This document shows positions 7,998-36,928 of a stretch of 64,000 nt of DNA, in pieces. This stretch comes from Candidatus Nomurabacteria bacterium. GTDB taxonomy: Bacteria; Patescibacteriota; Minisyncoccia; Phycocordibacterales; UBA918. How positions within the stretch are numbered: position 1 is the first letter of the stretch; every line of letters starts with the position of its first letter. The stretch covers positions 624,594-688,593 of the forward strand of contig CP060228.1 in NCBI GenBank assembly GCA_023898565.1, given 5' to 3'. The notes under the pieces are model-generated. The model saw only the letters and a program-made list of their open reading frames with translations. It did not search any database and was not told the origin of the DNA. The position numbers were made by a program, and so were the translations under genes.

Positions 7998-8576
7998 TTA
8001 GTATCGCAATAAGTAGCGATGCAATAGGCTATACGGCAACGCTGCACTGATGGTTGTGCAGCAGAAACAGCTGCAGCCAGCGATGAGTAGAGTTTGATCG
8101 CTACTAGGGAAGCTGACCATGAATAATGAACTGAGTGCGCAAGATCCAATCGCAGCGGCCAGCAGAAGTATTTGTGGCTTTGGTCGGAATAAAGTACCAA
8201 TTATCCCACCCCCAAGACCACTGAGAATCAAAAGTAGTTGAGTGACTTCAATGAAAAACTGACGTTCTGTCGGTGAGTTATCCGCTTTTCCCAGTTCAAA
8301 CCAAATTGGTATTGGTATTTGTAAAGGTGTTGCGCCAGCAGCAGCGATCATTGCTGGCGATACTGGGGGTGGCGTGGATAGTTCGGCATACGAACGGTTG
8401 ATGATCATCGCTTCAGCGCAGAAAATAAGCAGCGAACCGAAGAGAAAGAGACAGTTGCGAGATATACGCTTGACTGTGAACTCATACAAAATCATGTTTG
8501 TAAGCCTGCTCACGGTATTCTCCTTAGAGTGGACTGGTCTGGTTGATAGCGTACGCATCTGTCTGAGTGTCGTCAA
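7998..8576 (-). CDS. hypothetical polytopic membrane protein
   Basis: 192-aa ORF with several hydrophobic segments; the start is uncertain. Confidence 0.35.
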   Translation of the reverse strand: MTTLRQMRTLSTRPVHSKENTVSRLTNMILYEFTVKRISRNCLFLFGSLLIFCAEAMIINRSYAELSTPPPVSPAMIAAAGATPLQIPIPIWFELGKADNSPTERQFFIEVTQLLLILSGLGGGIIGTLFRPKPQILLLAAAIGSCALSSLFMVSFPSSDQTLLIAGCSCFCCTTISAALPYSLLHRYLLRY

Positions 8577-8622
8577 TGGGTTGCTATTTCGCAGGTGCCA
8601 CCGTTGCTGCTAAAATAAACAC

Positions 8623-9210
8623 ATGCACTATATAGTCCCACTCGGTAATCCAGGCGATAAGTATCAAGACACTCGCCATAATGTCGGTTGGCAAGCGATA
8701 GATTTTTGTATTGGTGCTTGGCGTTTGCCGTCTTTGGTGGAGTCGGGTGGACTGTCAGGACGTCTTACCGAAGGGGTGGTGCAAGGTGGCGAAGTAACGA
8801 TTCTCTATCCAACCACCTTTATGAATAATTCTGGCAGCGCTGTGCAGAAGTTGGTACCGAAAGGTGCGACAGGACAGCTGATTGTGATACATGATGACGT
8901 TGATTTGCCGCTTGGTGAAATAAAAGTTACGCAAGGGAAGGGGGCCGGTGGCAATAACGGGGTGTCGTCGATTATTGAAAAGCTTGGCTCGAAGGATTTT
9001 GTGCGGGTGCGCATCGGGATTGCGCCAAAGAGTTTTTGGACTGGGAAGACGAAGCGGCCCACTGGAGGCGGCCCACTGGAGCGCTTTGTGCTTAAAGCGT
9101 TTACAAGTAGCGAACAAAAGCAGTTGGTAGAAGTGTTTCCACAAGTGCAGCGGGCGATTGAGACCATTGTGGCTGACGGTGTGACGAAGGCGATGAATCA
9201 GTGTAATTAA
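8623..9210 (+). CDS. pth: peptidyl-tRNA hydrolase
   Basis: MHYIVPLGNPGDKYQDTRHNVGW with the catalytic His in the NPG..Y..TRHN context. Confidence 0.9.
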   Translation: MHYIVPLGNPGDKYQDTRHNVGWQAIDFCIGAWRLPSLVESGGLSGRLTEGVVQGGEVTILYPTTFMNNSGSAVQKLVPKGATGQLIVIHDDVDLPLGEIKVTQGKGAGGNNGVSSIIEKLGSKDFVRVRIGIAPKSFWTGKTKRPTGGGPLERFVLKAFTSSEQKQLVEVFPQVQRAIETIVADGVTKAMNQCN

Positions 9211-9293
9211 AAAATTGCGTGACCGTAGGTCACGCAATTTGATGCTCTGTGCCACAATCTAAAAAAAGAATGAATGTAGGTAGATTATCTTCC

Positions 9294-9515
9294 TTAGTCG
9301 TTCTCATTCTCGTATCGGTAGTGCAGCCAGAGATCGCCGAATGATTCTTCGGTGGTTTTTAAAAACATTACCCAGACGCCGTAAATGGTTAGTACGATAA
9401 AGGTTTCGTTTGGAACTCCAGTTGCGTTGAGCAGTATGGCTGAGGCTGTGTAAAGAGCGCTGATGGTAAAGAATATGCCAATAACGCACCAGTCATCGAA
9501 GGGATCATATTCCAT
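9294..9515 (-). CDS. small membrane protein (73 aa), hypothetical
   Basis: Two hydrophobic helices. On the minus strand there is a TTGACT-17-TAAGTT promoter-like sequence and a GGAG SD 8 nt before the ATG. The gene follows the rpsA terminator. Confidence 0.45.
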   Translation of the reverse strand: MEYDPFDDWCVIGIFFTISALYTASAILLNATGVPNETFIVLTIYGVWVMFLKTTEESFGDLWLHYRYENEND

Positions 9516-9576
9516 GATTATTCTCCAAAGTTTCCGGTGGTAACTTAAGTGTATTTGGGTGATTAGTCAATGTAGT

Positions 9577-9621
9577 AAAACAAACCGGCCGGGACCCTTT
9601 GGGTCCCGGCCGGTTTGTTTT
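9577..9621. terminator. 18-20-bp perfect hairpin terminator after rpsA
   Basis: AAACAAACCGGCCGGGACCC-TTTG-GGTCCCGGCCGGTTTGTTT. Confidence 0.65.
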
Positions 9622-9634
9622 AGTTCACCAACGC

Positions 9635-10741
9635 TTACGCGTTGCCTTCCTTGAATGAAAGGGTCATCTTCTGTTCAGATGGCTCGAAGAGCGTAATCTT
9701 GAACTTGTAGACATTACCGAGTGAAAGAGCAGCCTTGAGCTTCTCTTCAGTTTCAAATTCTGAAACGTGAACGAGACCTGCTACACCTTCTTCGATTGAT
9801 GCAAGTGCACCGTGCTTGTTGTACTTAATCACAACTGCGTCTACTACCTGGTCCTTCTGGTACTTCTTACCAGCTGTTACCCATGGGTTTTCTTTAAGCT
9901 GCTTGATTGAGAGTGAGATCTTGTCATCCTTCACTTCAATCACCTTTACGCTTACCTTATCACCCACCTTGTAGAGCGCCTTGGTGTCTTCTACGAGACC
10001 CCAGTCGAGTTCAGAGATGTGTACGAGACCTTCAAGACCTGGTTCGAGCTTAACGAATACACCAAAGTCTACAGCGCCAGTAACTTCACCTTCTACGACG
10101 TTACCAACTTCGTACTTGTTTACCTTCTCTTCCTTTTCCTGCTTTTCTTCAAGCCCCTTCTCAGAGAAGATAAGCTTGTGTTCTTTAGGATCAGCCGTGA
10201 TCATTACTACTGAAAGGTGCTTACCAACGAGTTCGTTGAGCGCAGTAAGGATCTTGTCCTTGTCGCCATCAGTAACGCGTGGGTAATTTTCAGCTGAAAG
10301 CTGTGATGCAGGGAGGAATCCCTGGATGCCCTGCCAGTCGATGATAAGACCGCCTTTGTTGGCTTCCTTCACCTCGAGGCTAAGAACAGTAGCGTTCTTA
10401 ACAGCTGCTTCGGCATCAGCCCAGATGAGTGCCTGACGAGCTTCCTTGAGTGAGAGCTCAATGTAGCCATCTTCGTTGTCGGTAGTTACTACCTTAGCGT
10501 CGATGCTGTCGCCTACATTCACCTTGCGAAGAATATCGCGGGCGTTCATGTATTCACGACCATAAATAAGACCAGTACCAAATGGGGTAACGTCGATGTA
10601 CACGCGAGCGCGTCCAATCGCTGATACGACACCTGATACGATTTCTCCATCCTTTGGAGCAGCTGGTGTTTCGGCCAAAACCTTGTCCATCACACCTGAA
10701 GCGACAGCAGCGCTGTCGCTGGATTTTCCAAATCCAAACAT
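9635..10741 (-). CDS. rpsA: 30S ribosomal protein S1, short form with 4 S1 domains
   Basis: Repeated S1/OB motifs, for example GEVTGAVDFGVFVKLEPGLEGLVHISEL. Confidence 0.9.
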   Translation of the reverse strand: MFGFGKSSDSAAVASGVMDKVLAETPAAPKDGEIVSGVVSAIGRARVYIDVTPFGTGLIYGREYMNARDILRKVNVGDSIDAKVVTTDNEDGYIELSLKEARQALIWADAEAAVKNATVLSLEVKEANKGGLIIDWQGIQGFLPASQLSAENYPRVTDGDKDKILTALNELVGKHLSVVMITADPKEHKLIFSEKGLEEKQEKEEKVNKYEVGNVVEGEVTGAVDFGVFVKLEPGLEGLVHISELDWGLVEDTKALYKVGDKVSVKVIEVKDDKISLSIKQLKENPWVTAGKKYQKDQVVDAVVIKYNKHGALASIEEGVAGLVHVSEFETEEKLKAALSLGNVYKFKITLFEPSEQKMTLSFKEGNA

Positions 10742-10908
10742 TGTATTTCTTTGTTATTTCCGACGACACGCGTCCGCGCAACTGTTGCTCGTGGCCATGT
10801 CCATGAGCGCGGGGTTAAACGTGTGTCGCTAGAAGCTATTAATTACCTAAAAGGTGTGCAAAATATAGCAGAACGTAGGGAATTGTCGAGGGTGCGTGAG
10901 TCAGAAAG

Positions 10909-11001
10909 CCGAGCCGCCTCCAGTTTTTCACACGCTCCGATGTTTGCCGAGTAGCTTGGGCGCACATTCTCCGCGGACGCTCAAAACTGGAGGCGGCTCG
11001 G
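10909..11001. repeat. conserved ~93-nt hairpin element, copy A: a 19-bp perfect outer stem enclosing a conserved core
   Basis: Stem CCGAGCCGCCTCCAGTTTT / AAAACTGGAGGCGGCTCGG. The core begins TCACACGCTCCGATGTTT and ends CTCCGCGGACGCTCA, identical to copy B at 12365-12453 while the outer stems differ. Confidence 0.6.
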
Positions 11002-13742: not shown

Positions 13743-16214
13743 ATGCCGAAAAAGACCACTGCACCCGAAGTTCCTGAAGTGCCAAAGCAAGGAATTGTCG
13801 CTCAAAGCATCACCAGTGAAATGGAGAATGCGTACCTCGACTACGCGATGTCGGTAATTACGCAGCGCGCACTTCCTGATGTGCGTGACGGACTAAAGCC
13901 GGTGCACCGCCGCATTCTGTATTCGATGCGTCTCAATGGCTTGACCGCATCAGCCAAATTTCGCAAGTCGGCGACGGTAGTAGGAGACGTGCTTGGTAGT
14001 TTTCACCCGCACGGTGACGCCTCGGTATATGAGGCGATGGTAAAGCTCGCACAGCCATTTTCGACACGCTATCCGCTCGTGATTGGTCAGGGTAACTTCG
14101 GTTCGATCGACGGCGACAGCGCTGCGGCCTATCGTTACACTGAGGCTAAAATGTCACGCATTTCTGAAGAAATGCTTCGAGATCTGGAAAAAGACACAGT
14201 CAACTGGCGTCCAAACTACGACGGTACCAAAAAGGAGCCCGAAGTATTGCCAGCGGCGGCACCAAACCTTTTGTTGCTTGGTTCGCTTGGTATTGCAGTG
14301 GGTATGGCGACCAATATCCCGCCACACAATCTCCGCGAAGTCGCCAATGCAACCGCGCATCTTATTGATGATCCAGACGCGACAACCGAGGATCTTTTGA
14401 AGCATGTGCAGGGGCCAGATTTTCCAACCGGCGCGATTGCGTTCGATAAAAAGGCGATTTCGCAAGCCTACACCAACGGCCGTGGCGGTGTGGTAGTGCG
14501 TGGTGAGGCTGAGATTGTCGAAGACAAGCGGGGCGCCTTCTCTATCGTAATCACTTCGATTCCGTATCGCGTCAACAAGGCCGATATGCAGGAGAAGATT
14601 GCTAATCTCGTGCGCGAAAAGAAAATTGAAGGTATTCGCGAAATGCGTGACGAATCAACCGACGATATCCGTGTGGTGATTGAGCTCAAGACCGGCGCCC
14701 AGCCACAGACCGTGCTCAATAAGCTCTACAAGCACACGCAGCTAGAAGACACCTTCCACTACAACATGGTGGCGCTCGTTGATGGCGTGCCGCAAACACT
14801 CTCGCTAAAGGCAATTCTCCAGGAGTATGTAAAGCACCGCGCTGAGGTGATTCGTCGCCGTACGCAGTACGATTTAAATAAAGCCAAAGACCGCGAGCAT
14901 ATCTTGCTAGGTCTTAAGAAGGCGCTTGATCACATTGATAAGATTATCAAATTGATTCGTGCCGCCAAGGACGTGCCAACTGCGCACGCCGCACTTATGA
15001 AGGAGTTCAAATTCTCTGCGATTCAGGCACAGGCGATTCTTGATATGCGACTTCAGAAGCTTGCTGGACTTGAACGCAAGAAGATTGAAGACGAACTCAA
15101 GGCGGTGCAGAAGCTGATTAAGGAGCTTGAAGCGATTTTGAAGAGCAAAGCTAAGATGATGAGTATCGTAAAGTCTGAACTCCTCGAAGTGGCTGAGAAG
15201 TACGGTGATGATCGTCGTACGAAGATTGTAAAGGGAGGCGTGAAGCAGCTTTCGCAAGAAGATCTGATTCCAGACGAAGAGTCAGTGCTCGTACTTACCC
15301 AAGGGGGCTACGTCAAGCGTACCAATCCATCTGAATACAAGGTGCAGAAGCGCGGCGGTGTCGGCGTAGTTGATCTCAATACTAAGGAAGAAGACGTGGT
15401 AACTACGCTTATTACCACGTCAGCCCACAGCGATCTCCTCTTCTTCACTGACTTCGGTAAGGTCTATCAGTGCAAGATGTTTGAAATTCCTGAGGGCCGC
15501 AAGGCGACCAAGGGTAAGTCAATTATGAACTTCCTCTCAATGGCGGCTGAAGAGCGCGTAACGTCAGTCTTGGCAGTGCGCAAGGAAGATTGGGAAGGTG
15601 ACTGGTCACTCATGATGGTCACCAAGAACGGTGTCGCTAAGAAGAGCGACGCGGCTGCCTTTAAGGACGTTCGCCGCAGTGGTCTTATTGCGATTACGCT
15701 TAAAGACGACGATTCACTCATTGCTGCGATGTTTGTGGGTGCGAAAGACGAAGTGTCGCTCATTACGGAGAAGGGCCAGTCTATCCGCTTCAAGGAAAGT
15801 GATGTACGTCAGATGGGCCGCACCGCCTCTGGTGTGGGCGCCATGAAGCTTTCTAAGGGTGATGTGATTGTCTCAGCTGATGTGATTCAGGGCGGTGAGA
15901 AAGATAAGCAGGTTTTGGTAGTAACCGAGCATGGGTATGGTAAGGCAACGCCAGCAAAGGAATTTAAGGTCCAAAATCGCGGCGGCTCAGGTATTAAGGC
16001 GGCTAAGGTGACTGATAAGACTGGTAAGATCGTGCGCGGACTTATTATTACCGATGAAGAGCAGGCGGAAGGCGAGCTTGTGATCATGAGTAAGAAGGGG
16101 CAAGTGATTAAGTTGCCACTGAAGGATGTGCCGGCCCTCGGACGTGATACGCAGGGCGTGCGCGTAATGAAGATGCGAGCAGGAGATTCTATCGCTAGCG
16201 TGGTGTTTGTTTAA
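13743..16214 (+). CDS. gyrA: DNA gyrase subunit A
   Basis: [33 protein letters not shown] with the active-site Tyr region, plus C-terminal beta-pinwheel repeats. Confidence 0.9.
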
Positions 16215-16226
16215 CACGCACTTGTG

Positions 16227-16352
16227 CCATCGGGCGGACTAATTTTCAGGCACGAATCAAGTTCTCCGCTCGCTTTCCGGTTTTAATAAAGAGGCTTCGC
16301 CTCTTGACAAAAACCGGGCTCCGCGAGGCCCGAAAATTAGTTCGTCCGATGG
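16227..16352 (+). ncRNA. candidate structured RNA element downstream of gyrA: a 21-bp closing helix with G-U pairs around two internal hairpins
   Basis: CCATCGGGCGGACTAATTTTC ... GAAAATTAGTTCGTCCGATGG with two G-U wobbles. Internal hairpins are CCGGTTTT..AAAACCGG and AGAGGC-TTC-GCCTCT. An intrinsic terminator follows at 16377-16409. Confidence 0.35.
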
Positions 16353-16376
16353 CTGAAGATGTATTGAGGGAGAAAT

Positions 16377-16409
16377 GCGGCGGGACCTTCGGTCCCGCCG
16401 CTGTCTTTT
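16377..16409 (+). terminator. intrinsic terminator
   Basis: GCGGCGGGACC-TTCG-GTCCCGCCGC followed by TGTCTTTT. Confidence 0.65.
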
Positions 16410-16454
16410 CACATAAACCAAAAATTCCACCTATCTCTGGTGTATAATAATCGC

Positions 16455-17003
16455 ATGAATACACCAATTGGCGGTCGGTTTGTCATGCCGGATGTGGTCG
16501 CATCACATTTTCACCTTAATGAGGGTGATTTAGTAGCAGATTTTGGCGCTGGTAGCGGTTTTTTCTTAAAAGCGCTTTCAAAAGCCGTGGCCGATACTGG
16601 TCGGGTTTATGCTTGTGAAATTCAGAAGCAATTGGTAGAAAAACTTGGTGAACTGGCGCGACTTCAAGGGCTTGGTAATGTGTATCCGCTTTGGTGTGAC
16701 CTTGAAGAAACAAACGGCATTAAAATCGGCACTGGTGAATTGGATGCGGCAATTTTGGTCAACACCCTCTTTTTGATTGAAGATAAGCAAGCTGCTGTAA
16801 AAGAAATGGGTCGCGCACTACGTAGCGGGGGTAAGTTTTTTGTTATTGACTGGACTGAGTCATTCGCTGGCATGGGGCCACAGCCACAAAATGTCATAAC
16901 TGCATCAGAGGCGACAGTGCTATTTGAGGCGAATGGATTTGTGCTTGAGCGTGAGTTTCCGACTGGTGATCATCACTATGGATTAGCTTTTCGTAAGATA
17001 TGA
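16455..17003 (+). CDS. class I SAM-dependent methyltransferase
   Basis: Motif I DFGAGSGFF. The ORF-track start at 16440 is GTG; the ATG at 16455 is preceded by TGGTGTATAAT (an extended -10) 6 nt upstream, which suggests a leaderless mRNA. The stop overlaps the next start (ATGA). Confidence 0.7.
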   Translation: MNTPIGGRFVMPDVVASHFHLNEGDLVADFGAGSGFFLKALSKAVADTGRVYACEIQKQLVEKLGELARLQGLGNVYPLWCDLEETNGIKIGTGELDAAILVNTLFLIEDKQAAVKEMGRALRSGGKFFVIDWTESFAGMGPQPQNVITASEATVLFEANGFVLEREFPTGDHHYGLAFRKI

Positions 17004-18310
17004 AACTCAGACCCTTTGAATTAGCATTGGTGGTTATCTTTGGTGGCATGATGATGGCGGCACTCATTATGCTTAAGGTGTATCAGCCGCCGGCAGATCC
17101 CAATGATCCTGCCGTGGTCTTTGATGGTCAGGTAACTATTTGGGGTGTGTTGCCGAGTGGTGAAATTGGTAGTTACCTTGGAGAGCTTGCCGGCGAAAAT
17201 CCTGCCTATGGACAAATTACATATCGTCAGTATTCTCCAGAAGAATTCAATTCAGTATTGGTCAATGCTTTGGCTGATGGTCGGGGTCCAGATTTGCTCC
17301 TTATTTCTCATGAGCAACTCGTACAGATGCGCCCGCGCATTCAACCAATTTCATATGAATCATACCCACTTCGTGATTTTAAAAACAATTACATTGACGG
17401 AGCGGAGATTTTTGCACTGAGTGATGGTCTCTACGGAATGCCTATTGCGGTTGATCCGTTGGTGATGTACTGGAATCGAAATGTTCTCTCTAACGAAGGC
17501 TTTTTGACTGCGCCAAAAACATGGGAGAGCTTGGTGAATGTTATGTTTCCAGCATTGATTGATCGAGGATTTGACCGAGTGATCAACCGCAGCGTGGTGG
17601 CTATGGGCGAATACGGAAACGTACGTAATGCTTTTGGAATCGTTTCCGCATTGTTGATACAGCAAGGTTCACAGGGTGTGGTTGACGTAGATGGAGAATA
17701 CCGTATTCGTCTGCGAAATTCTGTCGCAGCAGACGTTGATCCTTTGTATGCCGCCGCTGATTTCTACACTCGATTTAGCCGTCCAAACAACTCTTTGTAT
17801 TCATGGAATCGTTCTTTTGTGGAGGATCGTCAACAGTTCATCGGTGAGGATTTAGTGTTTTATTTTGGTTACGGAAGTGAAGCGAGTCAAATTGAACGCA
17901 TTAATCCAAATCTTAGTTTTGATATTGCAGAAATGCCACAAGGTGAATCTGCCACGCTCAGACGAACGTATGGTCGGTACTACGCATTGGTCGCGTTAAA
18001 ATCATCAGATAATTTAAACGGTGCTTTGGCTGTAATGTCAAACCTGGCCACTTCGGAGAGGTCAGCTGAAATTGCAAGGCGCATCAAGATGGTGCCGGTA
18101 TACCGGAGCTTGGTTGCTGCAGGTAGTAACGACACAATTGGCCGAGTAACATATTATACGGCACCAGTAACGTTTGGCTGGCTTAATCCAGATTTGCAGG
18201 CTTCAGAGGCGTATTTTGAAGCTGCAATGCAAGACATCAACGAAAACAGATCATCGGTAGATGGTGGGGTGTCTGATTTGGTGGGACGTTTGTCAGCTGA
18301 GTATAAATAA
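17000..18310 (+). CDS. membrane-anchored extracellular solute-binding protein-like (SBP family 1-like)
   Basis: N-terminal TM segment, then VTIWGVLPSGEIGSYLGELAGENPAYGQITYRQYSPEEFNSVLVNALADGRGPDLLLISHEQL, which resembles an SBP_bac_1 N-lobe. No permease or ATPase genes are nearby. Confidence 0.5.
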   Translation: MKLRPFELALVVIFGGMMMAALIMLKVYQPPADPNDPAVVFDGQVTIWGVLPSGEIGSYLGELAGENPAYGQITYRQYSPEEFNSVLVNALADGRGPDLLLISHEQLVQMRPRIQPISYESYPLRDFKNNYIDGAEIFALSDGLYGMPIAVDPLVMYWNRNVLSNEGFLTAPKTWESLVNVMFPALIDRGFDRVINRSVVAMGEYGNVRNAFGIVSALLIQQGSQGVVDVDGEYRIRLRNSVAADVDPLYAAADFYTRFSRPNNSLYSWNRSFVEDRQQFIGEDLVFYFGYGSEASQIERINPNLSFDIAEMPQGESATLRRTYGRYYALVALKSSDNLNGALAVMSNLATSERSAEIARRIKMVPVYRSLVAAGSNDTIGRVTYYTAPVTFGWLNPDLQASEAYFEAAMQDINENRSSVDGGVSDLVGRLSAEYK

Positions 18311-18316
18311 AGTGTT

Positions 18317-18697
18317 ATGACTAACTATGTAGAGTTATTAAAGAAGCAGGTTGTATCGAAGAGCGCTTCGGTGATGGTCGCGATTCTTGCTCTTACGCCG
18401 CTTGTCTCTTCAGCCCAGATTAAATTTAATTTAAAATCACCGCTTGATCCCAGTATCGTTACTGTTGAAGGTTTGTTGGTGGCAATTCTTAATGTGTTCA
18501 TTGTGATTGCTACGCCGATTATTGTACTGTTTATTATATACGCCGGTTTTATGTATGTGACAGCCAGAGGAAACGCCCAGCAGGTTGAGCAGGCTACAAG
18601 AGCGTTAACATACGCAGTCATTGGAGGGGTCATCTTGCTCGGTGCGGTGGCTATAGCCGGTATTGTTAAAGGTGTGGTTGATGCGTTTGCGGCTTAA
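18317..18697 (+). CDS. TrbC/VirB2-like type IV secretion pilin family protein, paralog 1
   Basis: Signal/TM segment plus the shared core VIATPIIVLFIIYAGFMYVTARGNAQQVEQA and a second TM helix, as in the CPR T4SS-pilin family. Confidence 0.6.
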   Translation: MTNYVELLKKQVVSKSASVMVAILALTPLVSSAQIKFNLKSPLDPSIVTVEGLLVAILNVFIVIATPIIVLFIIYAGFMYVTARGNAQQVEQATRALTYAVIGGVILLGAVAIAGIVKGVVDAFAA

Positions 18698-18717
18698 TGT
18701 AGTTCGTACACAGTAGT

Positions 18718-18984
18718 ATGTCTGAGCCTTTTAAAAATCCTCTCACCTTTACGTCGATCACTGAAATGATTGTTGCTATCATGAATGTGGTGATTATCAT
18801 TGCTACGCCGATTATCGTTTTCTTTTTAATTTACGCCGGTTTTATGTATGTGACTGCGCAAGGGAATCCGCAGAAGATCGAGATTGCTTCTCGATCGTTA
18901 CTGTACGGTATTATTGGCGGCGTTATTATTTTGGGATCGGTAGCGATTTTGGCGATTGTCAAAAATGTTGTCGGCGCATTTTAA
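18718..18984 (+). CDS. TrbC/VirB2-like pilin family protein, paralog 2
   Basis: IIATPIIVFFLIYAGFMYVTAQGNPQKIEIA is nearly identical in core to paralog 1. Confidence 0.6.
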   Translation: MSEPFKNPLTFTSITEMIVAIMNVVIIIATPIIVFFLIYAGFMYVTAQGNPQKIEIASRSLLYGIIGGVIILGSVAILAIVKNVVGAF

Positions 18985-19002
18985 TACAGATAATTAAAAA
19001 AT

Positions 19003-19254
19003 ATGAAACCAACTACCTATTCAGAACTTGTGGAACTCATCATTAATATTATAAATCTAGCCATTCCAGCTCTCTTTGGTGTTGTCTTTGTGTTTTTTAT
19101 CTGGAAAATGATTGATTCTTGGGTGATTCGTGGTGGCGAAGAATCAGCGCGTGAGGCAGGGAATAAGTACGCTGTTGCAGCAGTGATTGCATTTGTGCTC
19201 ATGATTAGCGCGTGGGGCATCGTAGCGCTCATCAAAGATTCTATTTTTGGATAG
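19003..19254 (+). CDS. small two-TM protein, divergent member of the pilin-like array
   Basis: 83 aa with two hydrophobic helices flanking a charged loop (RGGEESAREAGNK). It sits within the array. Confidence 0.45.
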   Translation: MKPTTYSELVELIINIINLAIPALFGVVFVFFIWKMIDSWVIRGGEESAREAGNKYAVAAVIAFVLMISAWGIVALIKDSIFG

Positions 19255-19256
19255 GT

Positions 19257-19646
19257 ATGAGTACAGTACGCGTGTGGTCTGTGATAGCAATGAGTGCCTT
19301 TGTTTGGCCGTATTCAGTTGCGCATGCGCAAATTGCGAATTCTAGCAATGGTGGATCGCTCCAGTCGTTGCTCATTAATATTTTACATTTTATTAACTCA
19401 ACGATTATCCCCTTTATTATCGGTATTGGGTTTTTATACTTCGTGTGGGGTGTCTTCCTCTACTTTATTGTCGGCGGTGCAGACGAGGAAAAGCGAGCTA
19501 AAGGGCGAAGTTATGTGGTCTCAGCGACAGTGGGATTTGTGGCGATCATTATCTTTTTCGGTGTTATTAACATGCTTGTTTCAAGTACTGGTCTTGAGGG
19601 AGAGTCGCTCCAGTACATGCCGGTAATCCCGCTTATTGGCTCATAG
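19257..19646 (+). CDS. TrbC/VirB2-like pilin family protein, paralog 3
   Basis: Signal peptide ...SVAHA, then IIPFIIGIGFLYFVWGVFLYFIVGGADEEKRAKGRS and a second TM helix. Start trimmed to the ATG at 19257. Confidence 0.6.
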   Translation: MSTVRVWSVIAMSAFVWPYSVAHAQIANSSNGGSLQSLLINILHFINSTIIPFIIGIGFLYFVWGVFLYFIVGGADEEKRAKGRSYVVSATVGFVAIIIFFGVINMLVSSTGLEGESLQYMPVIPLIGS

Positions 19647-19741
19647 TGATATCAGTGTATAACTCTTACAAGATGACTTTTTTTGTCCTATACTATATAG
19701 GTAGACGTTATAACGTTGTTAATTTATAAATATAAATACGT

Positions 19742-20131
19742 ATGAAAAAAATCGGATATCTAGCTGCAAGTGCAAGCACGTTGTTGCTGCCAGCACTTGC
19801 GTCCGCTCAGCTTGCTAATTCCACTAATGGTGATGGTGGGGCGCTGCAGGATTTGATGCAGAACATCCTAGAGTTTGTAAATGGAACCATTATTCCATTC
19901 ATTGTTGGTATCGGCTTCCTTGTATTCGTATGGGGAATGTTCAAGTACTTCATTGCGGGTGGTGCAAATGATGATGCTAAGGAGCAGGGAAAGAGCCTTA
20001 TGATTTATGCGACTCTTGGCTTCGTGCTTATCATTGTATTCTGGGGTATCGTCAATCTTCTTGCTGATACTACTGGTCTTGCTGAAGACTACAACAACAA
20101 CTACACACCAACAGTGGTTGTTCCTAGCTAA
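19742..20131 (+). CDS. TrbC/VirB2-like pilin family protein, paralog 4
   Basis: Signal peptide ...ALASAQ, then IIPFIVGIGFLVFVWGMFKYFIAGGANDDAKEQGKS and a second TM helix. Confidence 0.6.
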   Translation: MKKIGYLAASASTLLLPALASAQLANSTNGDGGALQDLMQNILEFVNGTIIPFIVGIGFLVFVWGMFKYFIAGGANDDAKEQGKSLMIYATLGFVLIIVFWGIVNLLADTTGLAEDYNNNYTPTVVVPS

Positions 20132-20133
20132 TT

Positions 20134-20191
20134 GCTTGCTATATCAACAAAAAGCGCTGGCAAGCCAGCGCTTTTTGTTGATATAGCAAGC
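20134..20191. terminator. 28-bp perfect palindromic hairpin between convergent genes
   Basis: GCTTGCTATATCAACAAAAAGCGCTGGC-AA-GCCAGCGCTTTTTGTTGATATAGCAAGC. Confidence 0.6.
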
Positions 20192-20211: not shown

Positions 20212-20919
20212 TTACCAAAACTTCTTGGGTAAGACACGGTACTTTAAGAGCACCAGACCGGCCTCGAGCGCATCCTTGAAGATAATTTTTTTTCCCTCTT
20301 CGGGACTGCGAGGGGTGTATGAGATAGGAAGTTCAGTAATGTTGTAACCGTTGCGTAGCAGCTTTGCGGTTACTTCTGGGCAAAAGCTGAAACGTTCTTC
20401 TTTGAGTTTTAATGTTTGCAAAATATCACGTCGTATCAGCTTGTAGCAAGTTGGTTCGTCGGTAATCTGGCTCCCATATAGAATATTGGTGAGCAAAGAA
20501 AGTGATATGCCTCCATAGTAAAAAATAGTTCTTTTTTCGATATGTAGGTTGCTTTTTGCTCCCAATCGACGTGATCCGTACACAGCTGGTAAATCATGCT
20601 CTACCGCATATTTTAGAAGCGCAGCAATGTCACGTGAATCATATTCTAAATCGGCGTCTTGGATAACTACATACTCACCAGAAGCTGCTGCCAGGCCGGT
20701 CCGGATGGCACCGCTTTTCCCTCGATTTCTTTTGTGTTCAATGAGGGTGATAGGGTGGCTAGATTTTTTAAGGAGCGCAATGGTGGCGTCTGTTGATCCG
20801 TCGTCAACCACAATAATTTCTTTTTTGATACTGCCAAAATCAACAGCACATAATGCGTCCAGCATTTGTTCGATTGTACCTTCTTCATTATAGGCGGGAA
20901 TGATAATTGAGAGTTTCAT
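20212..20919 (-). CDS. GT2-family polyprenyl-phosphate glycosyltransferase (DPM1/GtrB/ArnC-like)
   Basis: MKLSIIIPAYNEEGTIEQ...VVDDGSTDAT...VIQDADLEYD carries the GT-A DXD motifs. Confidence 0.85.
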   Translation of the reverse strand: MKLSIIIPAYNEEGTIEQMLDALCAVDFGSIKKEIIVVDDGSTDATIALLKKSSHPITLIEHKRNRGKSGAIRTGLAAASGEYVVIQDADLEYDSRDIAALLKYAVEHDLPAVYGSRRLGAKSNLHIEKRTIFYYGGISLSLLTNILYGSQITDEPTCYKLIRRDILQTLKLKEERFSFCPEVTAKLLRNGYNITELPISYTPRSPEEGKKIIFKDALEAGLVLLKYRVLPKKFW

Positions 20920-20953
20920 TTGGTTCAGTACTATTGATACATTTTACTATAAA

Positions 20954-21370
20954 CTATACTTTCATGTCCCCAAAGGCATAAAATTTAATGAGTAAAAAGT
21001 TAATCATAAAACTAAAACCAAGTGCGATGATTTTGCTCATCATGACGGGAAAAAGAAACAGTTCAACACAGATTACGACTGTGCCGAGGTTTGCTAAAAA
21101 GCCGACCGCACTTGAGGCAAAGTGTTTTACAAATGTAGCGCCAAAAGAACTTTTGCGCGAGAAGATAAGGAGGTTTGATAGTAAAAAATTGGTGATAGTG
21201 CCGGTTACAAACCCTCCTGAAACTGCAAAAGTGTAGTGCCAAGGCACTGTCTCCAATAGGGCGTATACAGTAGACAGGTCAATCACTGCCGCCATGCCAG
21301 CCACGAAAAAGTACGCAGCAAATTGCTTGCTTACATAGCGGGTACAGATAAATTGATACAACGCTCGCAT
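20954..21370 (-). CDS. GtrA-family small membrane protein (glycolipid flippase-like)
   Basis: 138 aa, four TM segments, C-terminal INFLLIKFYAF resembling the GtrA signature. Adjacent to the GT2 gene. Confidence 0.7.
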   Translation of the reverse strand: MRALYQFICTRYVSKQFAAYFFVAGMAAVIDLSTVYALLETVPWHYTFAVSGGFVTGTITNFLLSNLLIFSRKSSFGATFVKHFASSAVGFLANLGTVVICVELFLFPVMMSKIIALGFSFMINFLLIKFYAFGDMKV

Positions 21371-21403
21371 AATGTTCTGTCTTTACTATGTTACTATGTT
21401 ACT

Positions 21404-23134
21404 ATGTGGCTTAAAAAATATGGTGTGTACGGAGTAGTTTTTATGATTGTCTTCGTATTTTTATTGTGTGCAAAATATCCATTCGCTAATTTTAGCGGCA
21501 CTCGAGATTCATATTATCATACTGGCCATTCGATGGCGTATAAGTTTCACACCCCGTTTAACTATCCGCAGCTGACGTATCTAAATGAATACCCTTCAGA
21601 TCCGTGGTGGGGCTATCACCAGCTTTTGGCTCTGAGCTATACCGGTCTTGAGCAAGGTGATATTAAAGCAATAGTCACCAGGACAATCCTGCTGCATATT
21701 TTTTTGAGTTCGCTACTTATTGTGAGTATTACGCTGTTGGCAGTTGAGTACTACAGACATATGCAGCCTCTATACAAGCGTCTGTTACGTGTGCACAGCA
21801 TTCCGGACGCGCAAACGATCATCTCTGCCGCAACAGTTGCGAAGGTTGTCCTTCCAGTTTTGTTTTTTTTAACGTCGCTCCTGTTTTTGTATCGCGCAAC
21901 TTTTATGGAGCGACCACACGTGCTCATGATCATGTTTGTGGTCATGGGGATGTATTTTTTGCTTAAGCGGCAGTATTGGTGGTTGTCTCTGATGGCAGTT
22001 TTGTCGGTTCTCTGCTATTCGATGTCACTCTTTATATTTTTGCCAGCGACGGTCACGCTGGTTGGTTGGTTGCTTGTGGATCGGTCAAAAACAGGTTTGG
22101 TGGAGGCGATGAAGCCGTTTTGGTATACGGTATTCGGTTTTGTGATTGGGGTGTTACTACATCCGGCGTCGTGGGGGTATTTGCTAAATGGAGTGTTTTT
22201 CCATGCGTTTGCCATACTGCAGAGCTTTTCTTGGTTTATTGATTCTGAATTATCAGTGTTGGGTATACCGGGTGAAATGATGTACAATAAATCGTTAACA
22301 TTTAGTGCTCCGTTGGTTATTCTTACTACCGTATTTACGGGCATAGTATGGCACCGTTTGGTATCGGGTAGAAAGGAATTTCAAGTTTTATCAAGACAAC
22401 ATCGGTCATTGTTTACTATTGAGGCGGGTTTTTCAGTAGTGGCGTTAGCACTCGGACTCGCATCTTTTTTTGTATTGAGAACAGCAGAATACAGCTCACC
22501 GTTTTTATCGGTAGGTTTTGTTGCTTTCTTTTTCGGTTTCCTTTTGCCGGTACTAAAGTTGCTGCATGAAAAAATTATCGAGGATAAGAGCGAGTTCTCA
22601 TCGTTTTACAGACAAGCAGTTCGGGTGTCTGTGGTGTGGTATCGTTCATCTTTACTAAGAGGATTGTTTGTGGTGTGTATTTGCCTCCTCATTGTTTCTG
22701 TATTTACCTATGGCAAAACAAGAGCAAATCTTTACCCGATGGATCGGTTATTAGGTGCGAATAATTTCTTGGCAGGAGAAGAGGGTCGCGGAGTTATTTT
22801 AGGTAATGATTTTGCGTCTTATGCGCAAGGGTCATTCCAAACTCCTGACCACCTATATGCACAGGGCATGGATCCGCGAATGACGTATTTTTTCGATGAG
22901 CAGGTAGGTTTTTGTGTCAACGCTTTTCTGAGAGCAGTCAGAACAGACGGTGTACATTTTGACGGTGATGCGTGTATGCCAGAAGTAGTAGAGCGATTTA
23001 ATATTACCCACTTTTTGCTCGACGGTACTGACGCTACTGATTCTGTGCTCAACTATTACGAAGAACGACTTAATCTAGAATTGGTTTACCAAGACGAAAA
23101 GTACCCGCAAGTAAAAGTGTATAGGGTAGAGTAG
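21404..23134 (+). CDS. large polytopic membrane protein, putative GT-C fold glycosyltransferase (GtrC/YfhO/PMT-like third component)
   Basis: About 577 aa with ~12 predicted TM segments. It is divergent from the gtrA-like/GT2 pair. The ORF-track start at 21323 is TTG; the ATG at 21404 follows a TTACTATG x3 tandem. Confidence 0.45.
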   Translation: MWLKKYGVYGVVFMIVFVFLLCAKYPFANFSGTRDSYYHTGHSMAYKFHTPFNYPQLTYLNEYPSDPWWGYHQLLALSYTGLEQGDIKAIVTRTILLHIFLSSLLIVSITLLAVEYYRHMQPLYKRLLRVHSIPDAQTIISAATVAKVVLPVLFFLTSLLFLYRATFMERPHVLMIMFVVMGMYFLLKRQYWWLSLMAVLSVLCYSMSLFIFLPATVTLVGWLLVDRSKTGLVEAMKPFWYTVFGFVIGVLLHPASWGYLLNGVFFHAFAILQSFSWFIDSELSVLGIPGEMMYNKSLTFSAPLVILTTVFTGIVWHRLVSGRKEFQVLSRQHRSLFTIEAGFSVVALALGLASFFVLRTAEYSSPFLSVGFVAFFFGFLLPVLKLLHEKIIEDKSEFSSFYRQAVRVSVVWYRSSLLRGLFVVCICLLIVSVFTYGKTRANLYPMDRLLGANNFLAGEEGRGVILGNDFASYAQGSFQTPDHLYAQGMDPRMTYFFDEQVGFCVNAFLRAVRTDGVHFDGDACMPEVVERFNITHFLLDGTDATDSVLNYYEERLNLELVYQDEKYPQVKVYRVE

Positions 23135-23154: not shown

Positions 23155-23568
23155 ATGTGGTATCATTTTAGAATGAAACAGTTCTTGCGTACGCATCTCT
23201 ACTTATTTTTGCTTTTTGTTTTGCCGGCAGTAACATTCGCAGCGCCGCCGCCGGGGACGACTGAGGCACAAGCGTTTGTTGACAAGCTCAACTCAGTAAT
23301 TTTGTTCCCAACCATTGCACTTCTCAGTGCCGTGGCGTTCTTTGTATTTTTGTGGGGAACTGCTCAGTACTTCATGAACGCAAATAATGACGCAGCCCGG
23401 GAGCAAGGGGTGAAGCACATCACTTGGGGAATTATTGGCTTGGTAGTGATGTTATCTGCATTTGCTATCTTGGAGCTTGCTACCACAACTGTCGGATTGA
23501 GTAATGAGCTCGATTGCGCTAATGATCCAGCAAACTGCGCCAATAATCCATTTGTGGTGCCTACGTAG
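23155..23568 (+). CDS. TrbC/VirB2-like pilin family protein, paralog 5, with a Cys-containing C-terminal tail
   Basis: Signal peptide, then ALLSAVAFFVFLWGTAQYFMNANNDAAREQGVKH and a second TM helix; the tail contains CANDPANCANNP. Confidence 0.55.
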   Translation: MWYHFRMKQFLRTHLYLFLLFVLPAVTFAAPPPGTTEAQAFVDKLNSVILFPTIALLSAVAFFVFLWGTAQYFMNANNDAAREQGVKHITWGIIGLVVMLSAFAILELATTTVGLSNELDCANDPANCANNPFVVPT

Positions 23569-23591
23569 TGGTGTATAAAAGAAGGCCCGAG

Positions 23592-23622
23592 CGCTTGCGC
23601 TCGGGCCTTTTTAAAAGAACGT
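23592..23622. terminator. hairpin terminator
   Basis: AAGGCCCGAGCGC-TT-GCGCTCGGGCCTT followed by a T-run. Confidence 0.6.
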
Positions 23623-23632
23623 GAAGGAGAGG

Positions 23633-24550
23633 CTACGTCGCCGGTACCGCTTTCACAAAGATAGTTACCTTTGTGATGTCCGGGGTTTTACCCCAGCCAC
23701 TCGTGTACTCGTACTGTACCGACAGACGCAGTGCCAAACGGTACACACCTTGGATGCTGCCGGAATAAGTGAACGGCTTTTCGATTATGGCATAATCCTC
23801 TACCTTGAGGCTACGATGTTTGTGCTGCTCCTTAAATTCAGGAGCAAAATCGTAGACCAGTCTGTGGCCCGGGACCGGTGCTAAGAAGAACTCTTTCGTG
23901 TCGTTACAGACCACGATGTTTTGTCCTTCCGGGAAGACGTCAATGATGCCGCCTTCTTTGCCACAGCCGGCTGGCTTGTCGCCAAAGGCTACCTCGACCG
24001 CGCGAACAATTTTCTCGTCCGCATCGGTCATTGCCAAGGTTACACCGCCGAGAGTTCCAACGACCATGAACACTGCTGCGCCTCCGAACAGAATGATGAG
24101 CAGAAGTCCGATGTTGCCCAGCAAAATATCTACCAGACTATCGTTCCGCCATTTCTTCGGTCCTTTCGGTTTTTTCGGCCACACCATCCAGAGGATGAAA
24201 AGGCCGATGCCGACGGCGACTAAGTCAATCCACCAGCGGTTGGGCTCTACCTCAGCGGGGCTGAAGTGAAGTGCAGTGCCGGTGGGTGTGCTGGCGAACC
24301 AGGTGCCGACTTCGTTAAGGATGTTGGTCCAGTTTGCATATACTGCCAAGAAGGCAGCAACGGCAAGCAAGATTTTCAGCCACTTCAGCTTCATCAGTGA
24401 ACCGATGGAGCTGTTGATATTGCTTCTCAGATTCCCGGTCAAGGTTGGACCGGGTTTCGTACCTTGGGTGCGGAACAAACGATTGATGAATGTTCCGGCC
24501 ATGATGAGTGCTCCGCAGAACACCAGAAACACGATCCAGCCTGTACTCAT
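23633..24550 (-). CDS. hypothetical membrane protein: N-terminal multi-TM half plus a C-terminal soluble domain
   Basis: 305 aa. It lies 12 nt downstream of the SPFH gene on the same strand, so they are probably an operon. Confidence 0.5.
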   Translation of the reverse strand: MSTGWIVFLVFCGALIMAGTFINRLFRTQGTKPGPTLTGNLRSNINSSIGSLMKLKWLKILLAVAAFLAVYANWTNILNEVGTWFASTPTGTALHFSPAEVEPNRWWIDLVAVGIGLFILWMVWPKKPKGPKKWRNDSLVDILLGNIGLLLIILFGGAAVFMVVGTLGGVTLAMTDADEKIVRAVEVAFGDKPAGCGKEGGIIDVFPEGQNIVVCNDTKEFFLAPVPGHRLVYDFAPEFKEQHKHRSLKVEDYAIIEKPFTYSGSIQGVYRLALRLSVQYEYTSGWGKTPDITKVTIFVKAVPAT

Positions 24551-24562
24551 GATGTGTTACTC

Positions 24563-25723
24563 CTATTTTCTGAGACTAGTTATGAGTGCGGTAATGAGAG
24601 TGCTGACATCGCCTCCTTTTGCTACCGCATCGACCAGCGCTCGATTTTCAAGAATCGCTTTTTGCAGAGTTGGGTCAAGGTTCATGAGAACTTTGGCCAT
24701 ACTTTCTTGGCCAGCTGCTACGCCTTGATCGCTCAAGGCGCGGGCACGACCTTCTTGACGTCCGATTGCCGGAGCATGCAATTTGCTACGTTGCTCAGGC
24801 GGCAATTCATCCTCGAAATCTGTAATGTCGATCTTGAGAATGATGATGCCGAGGTCGGCCAGTTTCTTGCCCGAGTAGCTGCAGTTGTCGATGGTGTCAA
24901 AGACGTAATCTTTAACACCCTTTTGAATGAGAGTTGCCACCAGGCTGGTGATTGCCTCCTTGGTATCGTTTGCTTTTTGCTTGGCCCAGATTTGCTTGTC
25001 GATATTGCCGATGACATCGTCGAGCGTTACTTTACTGCGGACGACATTTCGTGCTACCGACTTGAGCGCCTGGTCGAGCAAGACGTTCCAAGACTCCGTG
25101 AGATACAGTGCCTCTTCAATCTTGTCCGGGTCAATCATGACCTGGGCCGAGCCTTCAACGGTGAAGGGGACGGTTTGAATCTCTGCTCCGGCGTACTCGA
25201 AGTACCAGGTAAATGGCGCAACGCGTACGTGGTTGGAGTAGTACCCCGGTTCATCTTCTTTGATGACTCGGTAGACTCGTTTTCCGCCCTCTTCTTTCAC
25301 TTTGTATCGTGGCAAATCATACGTCTTCGGCTCAGTGAAATACGGCACGTAAACGTGCACTTTCGCAATGTTCCAGACGTATTGTTTGTACAACATCCAC
25401 AGACCGAAAAGAGCGTCAGAATGCACCGGCCCGCTTGCTTCGCCGTCGATAGCGTAGAAGAACCGGCCGGAATAGTCGATAGCAACTTTACGACCGGTGC
25501 CAACCTCGATGAACATTGAGATCTTATTGGGCTGATTAGGATCGTGCAGCAGCTTGTCTTTCATGAAAGGTGAAAGGAGGGCAAAAACCAAGATGGCCAG
25601 TGCAACTCCCGAGATTGCTGCTACTACAGACAGCCAGATGGTGAGCCAGATTTCGCTAGTCAGCGCAGCTACAACACCGAGCAGAGACATGACGATTATG
25701 AATCCGCCAAAGATGACGTTCAT
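24563..25723 (-). CDS. SPFH/band-7 (stomatin/flotillin/HflKC-like) domain membrane protein
   Basis: N-terminal TM helices. The core VMIDPDKIEEALYLTESWNVLLDQALKSVARNVVRSKVTLDDVIGNIDKQI matches the SPFH pattern, followed by a coiled-coil-like tail. Confidence 0.55.
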   Translation of the reverse strand: MNVIFGGFIIVMSLLGVVAALTSEIWLTIWLSVVAAISGVALAILVFALLSPFMKDKLLHDPNQPNKISMFIEVGTGRKVAIDYSGRFFYAIDGEASGPVHSDALFGLWMLYKQYVWNIAKVHVYVPYFTEPKTYDLPRYKVKEEGGKRVYRVIKEDEPGYYSNHVRVAPFTWYFEYAGAEIQTVPFTVEGSAQVMIDPDKIEEALYLTESWNVLLDQALKSVARNVVRSKVTLDDVIGNIDKQIWAKQKANDTKEAITSLVATLIQKGVKDYVFDTIDNCSYSGKKLADLGIIILKIDITDFEDELPPEQRSKLHAPAIGRQEGRARALSDQGVAAGQESMAKVLMNLDPTLQKAILENRALVDAVAKGGDVSTLITALITSLRK

Positions 25724-36067: not shown

Positions 36068-36928
36068 ATGAGATTTCTTCCTGTTATCGCGCTTATTGTG
36101 CTGCTGTTTGTATCTCCTGATGCATCTGTTGGCGCAGGATTGGCACCAAACTGTGCTGGCGCAACATGTGGCTCTTGTGATGTGGTGGCGATGGCAAACA
36201 ACATCGTGAAGTGGCTCATTGGGGTGCTCTTTGTGATTTTTGCCATTATGGTCGCTGCGGGTGGTTTTGGCTTAGTAACGTCTGGAGGAAATCAGGCTGC
36301 TAAGGAAGCAGCCAAGAGTCGTATTAGTAACGCTATTATCGGTATCGTGCTTGTGCTCGCAGCGTGGCTTTTGGTCGATACGCTTATGCGAGCATTGCTT
36401 TCAGGTACTGAAGGTAAGATTAATGGGAATTTCTGGTATACCATTGAGTGCACCCAGCAAACAGCTACTGAAGATGTGCCAAGCGAGGAAATCAAAATGC
36501 CAGAGGATGCAAATGGTGATCCGGTAGCTGACTGTAGTAACCCCGCTTCCTTAATTGCGAAGTTTAATGGGTCACCACAAGGGGTGGAGGATAATCCAGC
36601 ACTGAGGACCATGATTAATTGCTACCTAGCGGACCCGGGGATTGCTGCCTTGGTTGATACTTCTAAAATATTCACATATGACCAGTCACATCCTATTTGT
36701 GCCAACACTAACGGTAATCCAGTCTGTGGACCATGTAGTCACAGTCGCGGCTCATGTCACTATGGTCGAGGAAGTGGTAAAGGTGCACAGGCGGTTGACT
36801 TTAATGCTAAAGGTAACGCCGAAAATGAACTCTACAAGCTGATAAAGGCTAAACAAGGCGTGTGTGGTGGTAAGCTTAATCCTGAAGGAAATCATACACA
36901 CATCAGTCTTGATACTTGTGGAAGCTAA
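36068..36928 (+). CDS. fusion protein: TrbC/VirB2-like pilin N-module plus a C-terminal LAS-family (M15/VanY/YcbK-like) zinc peptidase domain
   Basis: N-terminal signal peptide and ANNIVKWLIGVLFVIFAIMVAAGGFGLVTSGGNQAAKEAAKSRISNAIIGIVLVLAAWLLV (pilin core). C-terminal ...CHYGRGSGKGAQAVDFNAKG...NPEGNHTHISLDTCGS fits an H-x(n)-D ... H-x-H zinc ligand pattern. The ORF-track start at 36059 is TTG, so I trimmed it to 36068. Confidence 0.55.
   Translation: MRFLPVIALIVLLFVSPDASVGAGLAPNCAGATCGSCDVVAMANNIVKWLIGVLFVIFAIMVAAGGFGLVTSGGNQAAKEAAKSRISNAIIGIVLVLAAWLLVDTLMRALLSGTEGKINGNFWYTIECTQQTATEDVPSEEIKMPEDANGDPVADCSNPASLIAKFNGSPQGVEDNPALRTMINCYLADPGIAALVDTSKIFTYDQSHPICANTNGNPVCGPCSHSRGSCHYGRGSGKGAQAVDFNAKGNAENELYKLIKAKQGVCGGKLNPEGNHTHISLDTCGS

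Follow-up and report, generated by a model that had tools for sequence, protein, structure and literature searches.

Seven VirB2/TrbC-like pilin-family genes in a Nomurabacteria chromosome, five of them in tandem in a gyrA-linked array whose four classes keep a fixed order in Paceibacteria

Arrays of genes for VirB2-like pilins have already been published for the Patescibacteria, the bacteria of the candidate phyla radiation or CPR (PMC12102498; PMC10633639; PMC12857230). In a large survey, 2,417 of 3,035 assemblies of Patescibacteria had VirB4; VirB2-like genes were present in 1,948 VirB4-positive assemblies, near virB4 in 1,135 of these, and 441 arrays of 2-11 pilin genes were counted in 383 assemblies, with a mean identity of 25% and a maximum of 54% (Quiñonero-Coronel et al., 2025; PMC12102498). 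These arrays were most abundant in Microgenomatia and Saccharimonadia, and virB4 lies near dnaA in Paceibacteria (PMC12102498). In Saccharibacteria, four to six small Sec-secreted proteins are arrayed alongside that group's type IV secretion system (T4SS), as in Nanosynbacter lyticus TM7x (McLean et al., 2020; PMC7427843), while in Southlakia epibionticum a six-pilin array of the PF18895 family (SEML1_0014-0019), located in the T4SS cluster, was shown by transposon sequencing to be essential (Wang et al., 2023; PMC10633639). A 2025 review lists pilin arrays as a hallmark of the Patescibacteria system. The pilin genes considered here, five in tandem and two at a distance, lie in a stretch of 64,000 nucleotides of contig CP060228.1 from a Candidatus Nomurabacteria bacterium (this whole stretch is termed the window, and all coordinates refer to it). 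Their array is a further example of those already described, and a well-conserved one. To our knowledge, the T4SS of CPR bacteria is the only T4SS that has been found essential for growth; it has no known substrate and no visualised structure.

The source is a complete metagenome-assembled genome (MAG) of 951,832 bp from activated sludge, assigned to Candidatus Nomurabacteria/Kaiserbacteria within the Paceibacteria, in agreement with the CPR-type organism suspected in an earlier note made from the letters of this DNA. The window is chromosomal, with gyrA, clpB, infB, topA, parB, relA/spoT, ftsZ/ftsA and nine tRNA genes. The note had described five co-directional small open reading frames (ORFs) at 18317-20131 as TrbC/VirB2-like pilins, with further copies bringing the total to seven in 64 kb. 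Both the five ORFs and the total were recovered, the sixth copy being located at 23173-23568 and the seventh, at 36068-36928, being one single protein. We sorted the pilins into four classes, A for those resembling P1 and P2, B for those resembling P3, C for those resembling P4 and P5, and D for those resembling P6; signal peptides are predictions from sequence and hydropathy, and the gathering scores are 26.6 bits for PF18895 and 27.9 bits for PF04956.

18317 to 18697, plus strand: P1, pilin of class A with a predicted signal peptide, 126 amino acids (PF18895 31.7 bits, PF04956 28.1 bits; orthologs 52-60% identical)
18718 to 18984, plus strand: P2, duplicate pilin of class A, no signal peptide, 88 amino acids (PF18895 31.9 bits; core 63% identical to that of P1)
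19003 to 19254, plus strand: P3, pilin of class B, no signal peptide, 83 amino acids (PF18895 28.6 bits)
19257 to 19646, plus strand: P4, extra pilin of class C with a predicted signal peptide, 129 amino acids (PF18895 21.3 bits, under the 26.6 required; core 58% identical to that of P5)
19742 to 20131, plus strand: P5, pilin of class C with a predicted signal peptide, 129 amino acids (PF18895 38.4 bits; preceded by a 95-nt AT-rich spacer)
23173 to 23568, plus strand: P6, pilin of class D with a predicted signal peptide and a Cys pair in its C-terminal tail, 131 amino acids (PF18895 31.8 bits)
36068 to 36928, plus strand: P7, pilin fusion with a predicted signal peptide, a single protein of 286 amino acids (PF18895 42.5 bits)

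Gene callers start P4 at the ATG at 19257, not at the GTG at 19212, and the intergenic gaps from P1 to P5 measure 20, 18, 2 and 95 nt. P1, P5 and P7 are identical to USN88514.1, USN88518.1 (H6780_03425) and USN88533.1, respectively, the last of which is already named 'TrbC/VirB2 family protein' at NCBI. Database entries under Kaiserbacteria include identical proteins as well. A hidden Markov model (HMM) built from the seven found no eighth copy among the 648 six-frame ORFs of at least 45 amino acids (next match at E = 0.23).

Judged by their sequences, the seven ORFs encode VirB2/TrbC-like pilin-family proteins of T4SSs, as the earlier note had it. The Pfam search gave PF18895 (T4SS_pilin) for every copy (E = 7e-11 to 3e-4), above the gathering score for six of them. 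With PF04956 (TrbC), P1 alone, and barely, exceeds the cut-off; P2, P5 and P6 reach 21.9, 16.2 and 13.6 bits, and the remainder have no match. The best NCBIfam model for all seven is NF045849 (E = 4e-9 to 3e-4, under its cut-off), the 'Mbov_0395 family pilin-like conjugal transfer protein' of Mycoplasma integrative and conjugative elements (ICEs). It may be remarked that the NF045849 matches suggest that VirB2-like proteins also occur in the setting of monoderm ICEs, contrary to the claim that Gram-positive T4SS classes lack VirB2 homologues. P5 has 980 homologs, the best 120 of them at 60-99% identity, and P4 is 44-48% identical to the orthologs of P5. Searched against the PDB, a profile of the P1/P2 alignment returned nothing but designed 'Pizza' beta-propeller repeats through the short word AGxxYVTxxGN; with i-Evalues around 100, these matches are spurious.

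Small proteins with two transmembrane (TM) helices are generic, and JGI names some homologs 'YidH (DUF202)'; one might then suppose that the Pfam name is misleading and that we are dealing with an unrelated two-TM family, holin-like or of phage origin. We hold it to be extremely unlikely. PHROGs gave no holin and no annotated phage family (a single weak match, that of P1 to a family of unknown function, at E = 0.007), the context is housekeeping (gyrA, IF2, clpB, tRNAs) with no prophage, and the matches to PF18895, PF04956 and NF045849 agree, which all disfavour a holin or phage origin.

In each of the seven copies, hydropathy reveals a pair of hydrophobic helices with a short polar loop between them, the architecture noticed at the outset. 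The signal peptide that was then attributed to all five tandem ORFs is predicted in P1, P4 and P5, as well as outside the tandem in P6 and P7, and not in P2 and P3, whose ORFs allow no upstream extension. As for the core motif, said to be nearly identical across the five, this does not hold: IIPFI(I/V)GIGFL.FVWG is common to P4 and P5 only, while P1 and P2 have another core, IATPIIVxFxIYAGFMYVTA, with 63% identity. Pairs other than P1/P2 and P4/P5 display 15-34% identity, and the mean core identity of the array is about 30% (range 15-63%). Conservation among 121 sequences of the P5 family is distributed unevenly, with an entropy of 0.33-0.53 bits in the core made of the first helix, the loop and the second helix, and of 1.5-2.0 bits in the N-terminal segment of the mature protein and in the tail at the C terminus. 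A packed hairpin with exposed termini would be expected to vary in this way. The AlphaFold2 (AF2) model of P7 displays a confident hairpin made of helices 36-71 and 76-110, with a predicted local distance difference test score (pLDDT) above 90 there and of 84 overall; because clusters of Cys are conserved both in its N-terminal segment and in its C-terminal domain, the two termini of P7 are placed outside the cytoplasm. The topology of these pilins is therefore that of a hairpin with both termini outward.

The exposed tails have features of their own. Those of P4, P5 and P6 (19600-19646, 20095-20131 and 23520-23568) have a common P-x-V-x-(V)-P motif, with P123 conserved at 90% in the P5 family, and the tails of class D display a conserved pair of Cys (LDCA....C). 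The motif or the Cys pair may signal processing or recognition, or form a disulfide-bonded loop. The window also codes for a DsbB homolog and a multicopper oxidase (58251-58817 and 61458-63095), consistent with the extracytoplasmic disulfide formation that the Cys-rich ectodomains of P6 and P7 would need.

When a single genome of each GTDB species was scanned with the alignment of P1 and P2, 79 related loci emerged, in MAGs of Kaiserbacteria, Nomurabacteria and other Paceibacteria, of which 69 are complete from the gene of a solute-binding protein (SBP) homolog to the last pilin. The two genes that precede the pilins in the window are the following.

16455 to 17003, plus strand: class I S-adenosylmethionine-dependent methyltransferase, 182 amino acids (Pfam Methyltransf_11/25/31 on the identical gene of the related locus L001)
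17000 to 18310, plus strand: MalE-type SBP homolog, 436 amino acids, membrane-anchored (one TM helix, residues 7-25)

The methyltransferase gene is the first one past the gyrA terminator, a terminator-like hairpin at 16377-16401, 3' of gyrA; its stop overlaps the next start (ATGA), and among those of the 79 loci that reach that far, nearly every one has it at the same place. Orthologs of the SBP homolog carry SBP_bac_1/SBP_bac_8, and NCBIfam gives MalE at E = 7e-4. Against the PDB, a profile of 24 orthologs retrieved sugar-binding SBPs and the maltose-binding protein (MBP), the best native SBP being 4r9f (E ~2e-10), with the top rows (down to 3e-12) made of MBP-fusion constructs. No ABC permease or ATPase is found near this gene. 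It is situated directly 5' of the first pilin, at 6 nt in the window and at a median of 6 nt in the 69 loci, always co-oriented. Methyltransferase, SBP homolog and pilins thus carry the signals of co-transcription.

Wherever sequence suffices, the neighbourhood reads in the same order in the 79 loci: SPase, Pth, S1, MBL, gyrA, methyltransferase, SBP and pilins, followed by two minus-strand membrane genes, rhodanese, infB, nifS and clpB. Within it, the class order A(1-2)-B-C(1-3)-D is invariant in all 69 complete loci, each from a different GTDB species, with ABCD as the most frequent type (38), followed by ABCCD (16), AABCCD (8), AABCCCD (4) and ABCCCD (3). The window is a case of AABCC-D. Class B is represented by exactly one gene in every complete array, and a second class A gene exists in 12 of them. 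In relatives, the class D gene lies directly 3' of class C, so that P6, followed in the window by a terminator-like hairpin at 23582-23609, closes the ancestral array; only in this lineage is it split from P5, by three inserted genes. Orthologs are identical at 52-60% for P1, 60-61% for P2, 55-62% for P3, 63-69% for P5 and 51-61% for P6, to be compared with 84-90% for GyrA and 48-62% for the SBP homolog. All this points to paralogs that are old, non-redundant subunit classes, with copy number changing only in classes A and C. A fixed order, with own orthologs for each class, agrees with functional specialisation, into major and minor subunits or other distinct roles, with variable exposed ends.

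The fixed order and the one-to-one correspondence of classes also argue against antigenic variation among interchangeable copies. That so many diverged paralogs in a row might reflect antigenic or functional diversification of a putative surface filament, serving in attachment to the host or in DNA uptake, had been the suggestion of the earlier note; the antigenic reading has also been raised in published discussion (PMC12102498), and interchangeable major pilins, recently diversified so as to escape recognition or to suit different hosts, have been proposed for the VirB2 paralogs of Bartonella and Anaplasma. To be sure, the variable parts are precisely the exposed N- and C-terminal tails, and class C goes from one to three copies between species, with P4 as an extra diverged copy here. 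Yet the four classes are ancient, with own orthologs and the A-B-C-D order in 69 of 69 loci, identity between classes is 15-34%, leader status and tail features differ from class to class, and there are neither repeats nor recombination cassettes. Antigenic or host-range variation is thus a very unlikely account of this array.

P7 illustrates another use of the hairpin. It begins with a leader, continues with a CxGxxCxxC motif and then the pilin hairpin, and ends in a Cys-rich extracytoplasmic C-terminal domain. All four features are retained in 37 orthologs, where H231 and D244 of the C-terminal domain are invariant and H276 and H278 conserved at 90% or more. Its site, between clpB and miaA/parB/relA/topA, is syntenic, and relatives hold there pilin fusions with SLT or NlpC/P60. 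In some of them two pilin-hydrolase fusions sit side by side in the clpB-miaA interval (8474-10918 in locus L011, 9021-10852 in L012). In at least 21 of the 120 P7 homologs listed, the pilin domain is joined to M15_3, M15_4, VanY, SLT or NlpC/P60. The C-terminal domain of P7 itself is harder to place: Pfam (E up to 10) as well as phmmer and profile searches of the PDB came back empty, and Foldseek of P7 found no PDB match better than E = 0.5. In a fold search of BFVD, three of the top six matches were Peptidase M15A or 'Peptidase', at E = 0.15 or worse (0.15 for the top match, an M15A). Aligned as a whole protein with the M15_3 fusions, P7 matched in hhalign over the pilin domain only; trimmed and compared with the paralogs bearing PF08291, it gave a weak match (P = 0.0013, probability 19%) that aligns the SxH, AxD (AVD) and HxH residues. 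The domain is probably a divergent zinc peptidase of the LAS/M15 type. Firmer than this identity is the observation that, in this clade, the pilin hairpin repeatedly holds a cell-wall hydrolase outside the membrane.

Which machine would handle these pilins? Pfam scans of the roughly 45 ORFs of the window found no VirB4, VirD4, VirB11, VirB6 or PrgI, and its unannotated proteins have no Walker A motif. Contigs sharing identical end genes add some 3 kb on the upstream side (Nramp, DUF1697) and some 10 kb on the downstream side (MacAB-like, ArgRS, RsgA), again with no T4SS genes, so that the early remark that no T4SS ATPase was in view stands. P-loop ORFs of 450 amino acids or more number just one in the 79 loci, a TOTE primase-helicase. 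This TOTE conflict-system protein (AEP-TOTE plus ResIII; 15631-17760 of locus L032), encoded downstream of the array, is an insertion of the defence type and has no relation to the pilins. Four of the 79 array loci figure in the VirB4 table of PMC12102498. Two of these array-bearing assemblies, GCA_001781415.1 (963 kb) and GCA_001783565.1 (757 kb), respectively L037 and L060 in our set, are VirB4-positive there, which implies that a T4SS exists in the clade, more than 10 kb away from the array. This unlinked T4SS is the likely partner of the array.

The explanation that we favour, with moderate confidence in it as a whole, is that of pilins of four classes assembled by an unlinked, monoderm-type T4SS, with a wall-hydrolase role for P7. 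Each pilin would form a hairpin of two helices within the cytoplasmic membrane, loop in the cytoplasm and termini outward, P1, P4, P5, P6 and P7 entering via a cleavable leader and P2 and P3 inserting without one. The gyrA-linked operon supplies the four ancient, non-redundant classes A-B-C-D; in this lineage, class A has been duplicated (P2) as well as class C (P4), and a glycosylation cassette gained between C and D. A chromosomal T4SS (VirB4, VirB6, PrgI) located elsewhere in the genome would extract the subunits and assemble them into a pilus or an envelope-spanning conduit, made of a major subunit and specialised minor ones, that may serve the host-dependent lifestyle. The hairpin core is conserved, and species differ in the exposed N- and C-terminal tails. 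In P7 and its relatives, finally, the hairpin would anchor a cell-wall hydrolase on the outer side of the membrane, to open the wall as VirB1 does. We infer in particular the polymerisation, the dependence on the unlinked T4SS and the role in host interaction.

Several observations weigh against this explanation. Neither the PDB profile search nor the fold search returned a solved VirB2 or TraA pilin, a two-helix hairpin is a fold that discriminates poorly, and P2 and P3 are devoid of the leader typical of VirB2. Within 10 kb on either side of the array, no VirB4, VirD4, VirB6 or PrgI was found in the 79 related species, and two array-bearing assemblies (L087 and L090) are VirB4-negative in the table of PMC12102498, being the smallest drafts (647 and 633 kb). 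The 2025 review itself speaks only of the 'potential to elaborate conjugative pili', with no pilus visualised for any Patescibacterium.

Some of these points feed the main competing explanation, in which the PF18895 hairpin is a membrane anchor or envelope module independent of any T4SS, working with the SBP homolog and the hydrolases and never polymerised. Besides the isolation of the array from T4SS genes and the two VirB4-negative assemblies, it would account for the orphan sugar-type SBP, always co-oriented with the pilins at a median of 6 nt, and for the fusion of the hairpin to at least five hydrolase families, a behaviour more like that of an anchor than of a polymerising subunit. However, the entire 20-kb neighbourhood is syntenic, so that adjacency of the SBP gene may be nothing but inherited gene order; the T4SS cluster of S. 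epibionticum has PF18895 arrays and no SBP; the family is related by HMM to TrbC/VirB2 and to the pilin-like proteins of Mycoplasma ICEs; and the VirB4-negative assemblies are small drafts. We consider this explanation rather unlikely. A bolder proposal makes the gyrA-linked operon a clade-wide, self-contained module, where the SBP homolog and an A-B-C-D heteromeric conduit would import host glycans or wall fragments while P7-like hydrolases open the wall, the PF18895 hairpin having been repurposed beyond T4SS pilus biogenesis, possibly without VirB4; it is, in our opinion, quite unlikely. Assembly of the four classes by an unlinked T4SS remains our preferred reading.

The genes that split the array in the window form a group of another nature, preceded by a hairpin.

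20146 to 20177, no strand assigned: G+C-rich hairpin flanked by runs of A and T, between the convergent P5 and glycosyltransferase genes, read from the sequence (aaaaagcgctggcaagccagcgcttttt) and not listed by the pattern scan
20212 to 20919, minus strand: family 2 glycosyltransferase (GT2; Pfam Glycos_transf_2, 1e-35)
20954 to 21370, minus strand: GtrA (GtrA_DPMS_TM, 9e-15)
21404 to 23134, plus strand: polytopic protein of GT-C fold, 576 amino acids (AF2 model with pLDDT 90.8 and a predicted template modelling score, pTM, of 0.91)

The hairpin is likely to be a bidirectional terminator, from the look of its letters. All 79 related loci lack the three genes (20212..23134), which were therefore inserted between classes C and D in this lineage. 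The family of the 576-residue protein is small, with 68 representatives at 50% identity, and is matched by no Pfam model, existing GT-C models included, and by no NCBIfam model. When its AF2 model was compared with the PDB by Foldseek, all 11 matches with E of 0.001 or below were GT-C enzymes (STT3, PglB, ALG9, AftA), the best one being STT3 8age_A (E = 7e-8; TM-score 0.56 normalised to the query, 0.51 to the target). In 46 homologs, D35 and H39 of its first loop (consensus DDPYYH) are nearly invariant. The protein thus has the fold of a GT-C enzyme, an acidic residue in the first external loop, and GT2 and GtrA as neighbours. The earlier note had hesitated between a VirB6-like and a GT-C protein; the second option is borne out by the model, and VirB6 identity is rejected, the same search having returned GT-C enzymes and no VirB6. 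As modelled, the cassette is a three-component one for glycosylation from lipid-linked sugars, not a VirB6 locus. It was tempting to make the pilins its target, P4 and P5 having N-x-S/T sequons after their leader. We dropped this as a general mechanism: of the sequons, N47 alone is conserved across 121 P5 homologs, and none of the 79 loci has the cassette.

Other neighbours deserve mention. On the minus strand at 23633-25723, two fast-evolving membrane proteins are encoded, always convergent to the last pilin in relatives. One, of 305 amino acids, has four TM helices; the other, of 386, has two, and its positional counterpart in locus L008 is a Band_7/SPFH protein. Across species their sequences are too diverged for alignment. 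Further on, at 45241-48066 and divergent from dprA, lies the gene of an acidic protein of 941 amino acids with coiled-coil and Pro/Ala-rich regions, in which we found no TM helix, leader or Walker motif and no Pfam or NCBIfam match.

CPR bacteria depend on host cells, and the present locus leaves the picture of their T4SS unchanged. What it adds is that a large clade of Paceibacteria keeps four pilin classes in fixed order away from ATPase genes, a point in favour of an assembly of several subunits and against antigenic variation. The constant pairing of the array with an orphan sugar-type SBP is a further usable fact, and the hairpin-hydrolase fusions may fill the role of VirB1, which published surveys found missing from most VirB2-positive genomes. 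Class order, SBP pairing and fusions are concrete targets for work in cultivable relatives.

How does this locus compare with known systems? The cassette resembles GtrA/GtrB/Gtr(type) modules and GT-C enzymes in combining a GT2 akin to polyprenyl-phosphate sugar synthases, a flippase-like GtrA and a GT-C transferase; it differs in that its GT-C family has no Pfam model and that it is not conserved with the pilins. P7 and its relatives recall PrgK, TcpG and TraG, the wall hydrolases that play the role of VirB1 in Gram-positive T4SSs, all having an external domain of hydrolase type anchored by TM segments. There the anchor is a single TM helix, whereas that of P7 is a VirB2-like hairpin, and its catalytic domain can be assigned only weakly. 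With VirB2, TrbC and TraA (Agrobacterium T-pilus, RP4, F), the pilins of the window share two hydrophobic helices and a short loop, preceded in five of them by a predicted leader, and P1 passes the TrbC threshold. By contrast, those systems have one major pilin each, sometimes cyclised, encoded beside virB3/virB4 in diderm hosts, and here we have 4-7 paralogs, two of them leaderless, in a monoderm-type host and unlinked to an ATPase. Nearer are SEML1_0014-0019 of S. epibionticum ML1 and the array of TM7x, where again four to six divergent PF18895 proteins follow one another in epibiotic CPR bacteria; those arrays are within a T4SS cluster (VirB4-like SEML1_0008, PrgI SEML1_0010, a VirB6-like protein), whereas that of the window has no linked T4SS gene. 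Nearest are the arrays surveyed in PMC12102498, defined as 2-11 pilin genes in tandem, or with one non-pilin gene between them, and of low identity: P1 to P5 form such an array, likewise of PF18895/PF04956 type, co-directional, chromosomal and without relaxase. It departs from them by its place in Paceibacteria, with no virB4 within 10 kb of it in any of 79 species, by its link to gyrA with a methyltransferase and a MalE-like SBP in front, and by the fixed order of its four classes, split by a cassette in this lineage.

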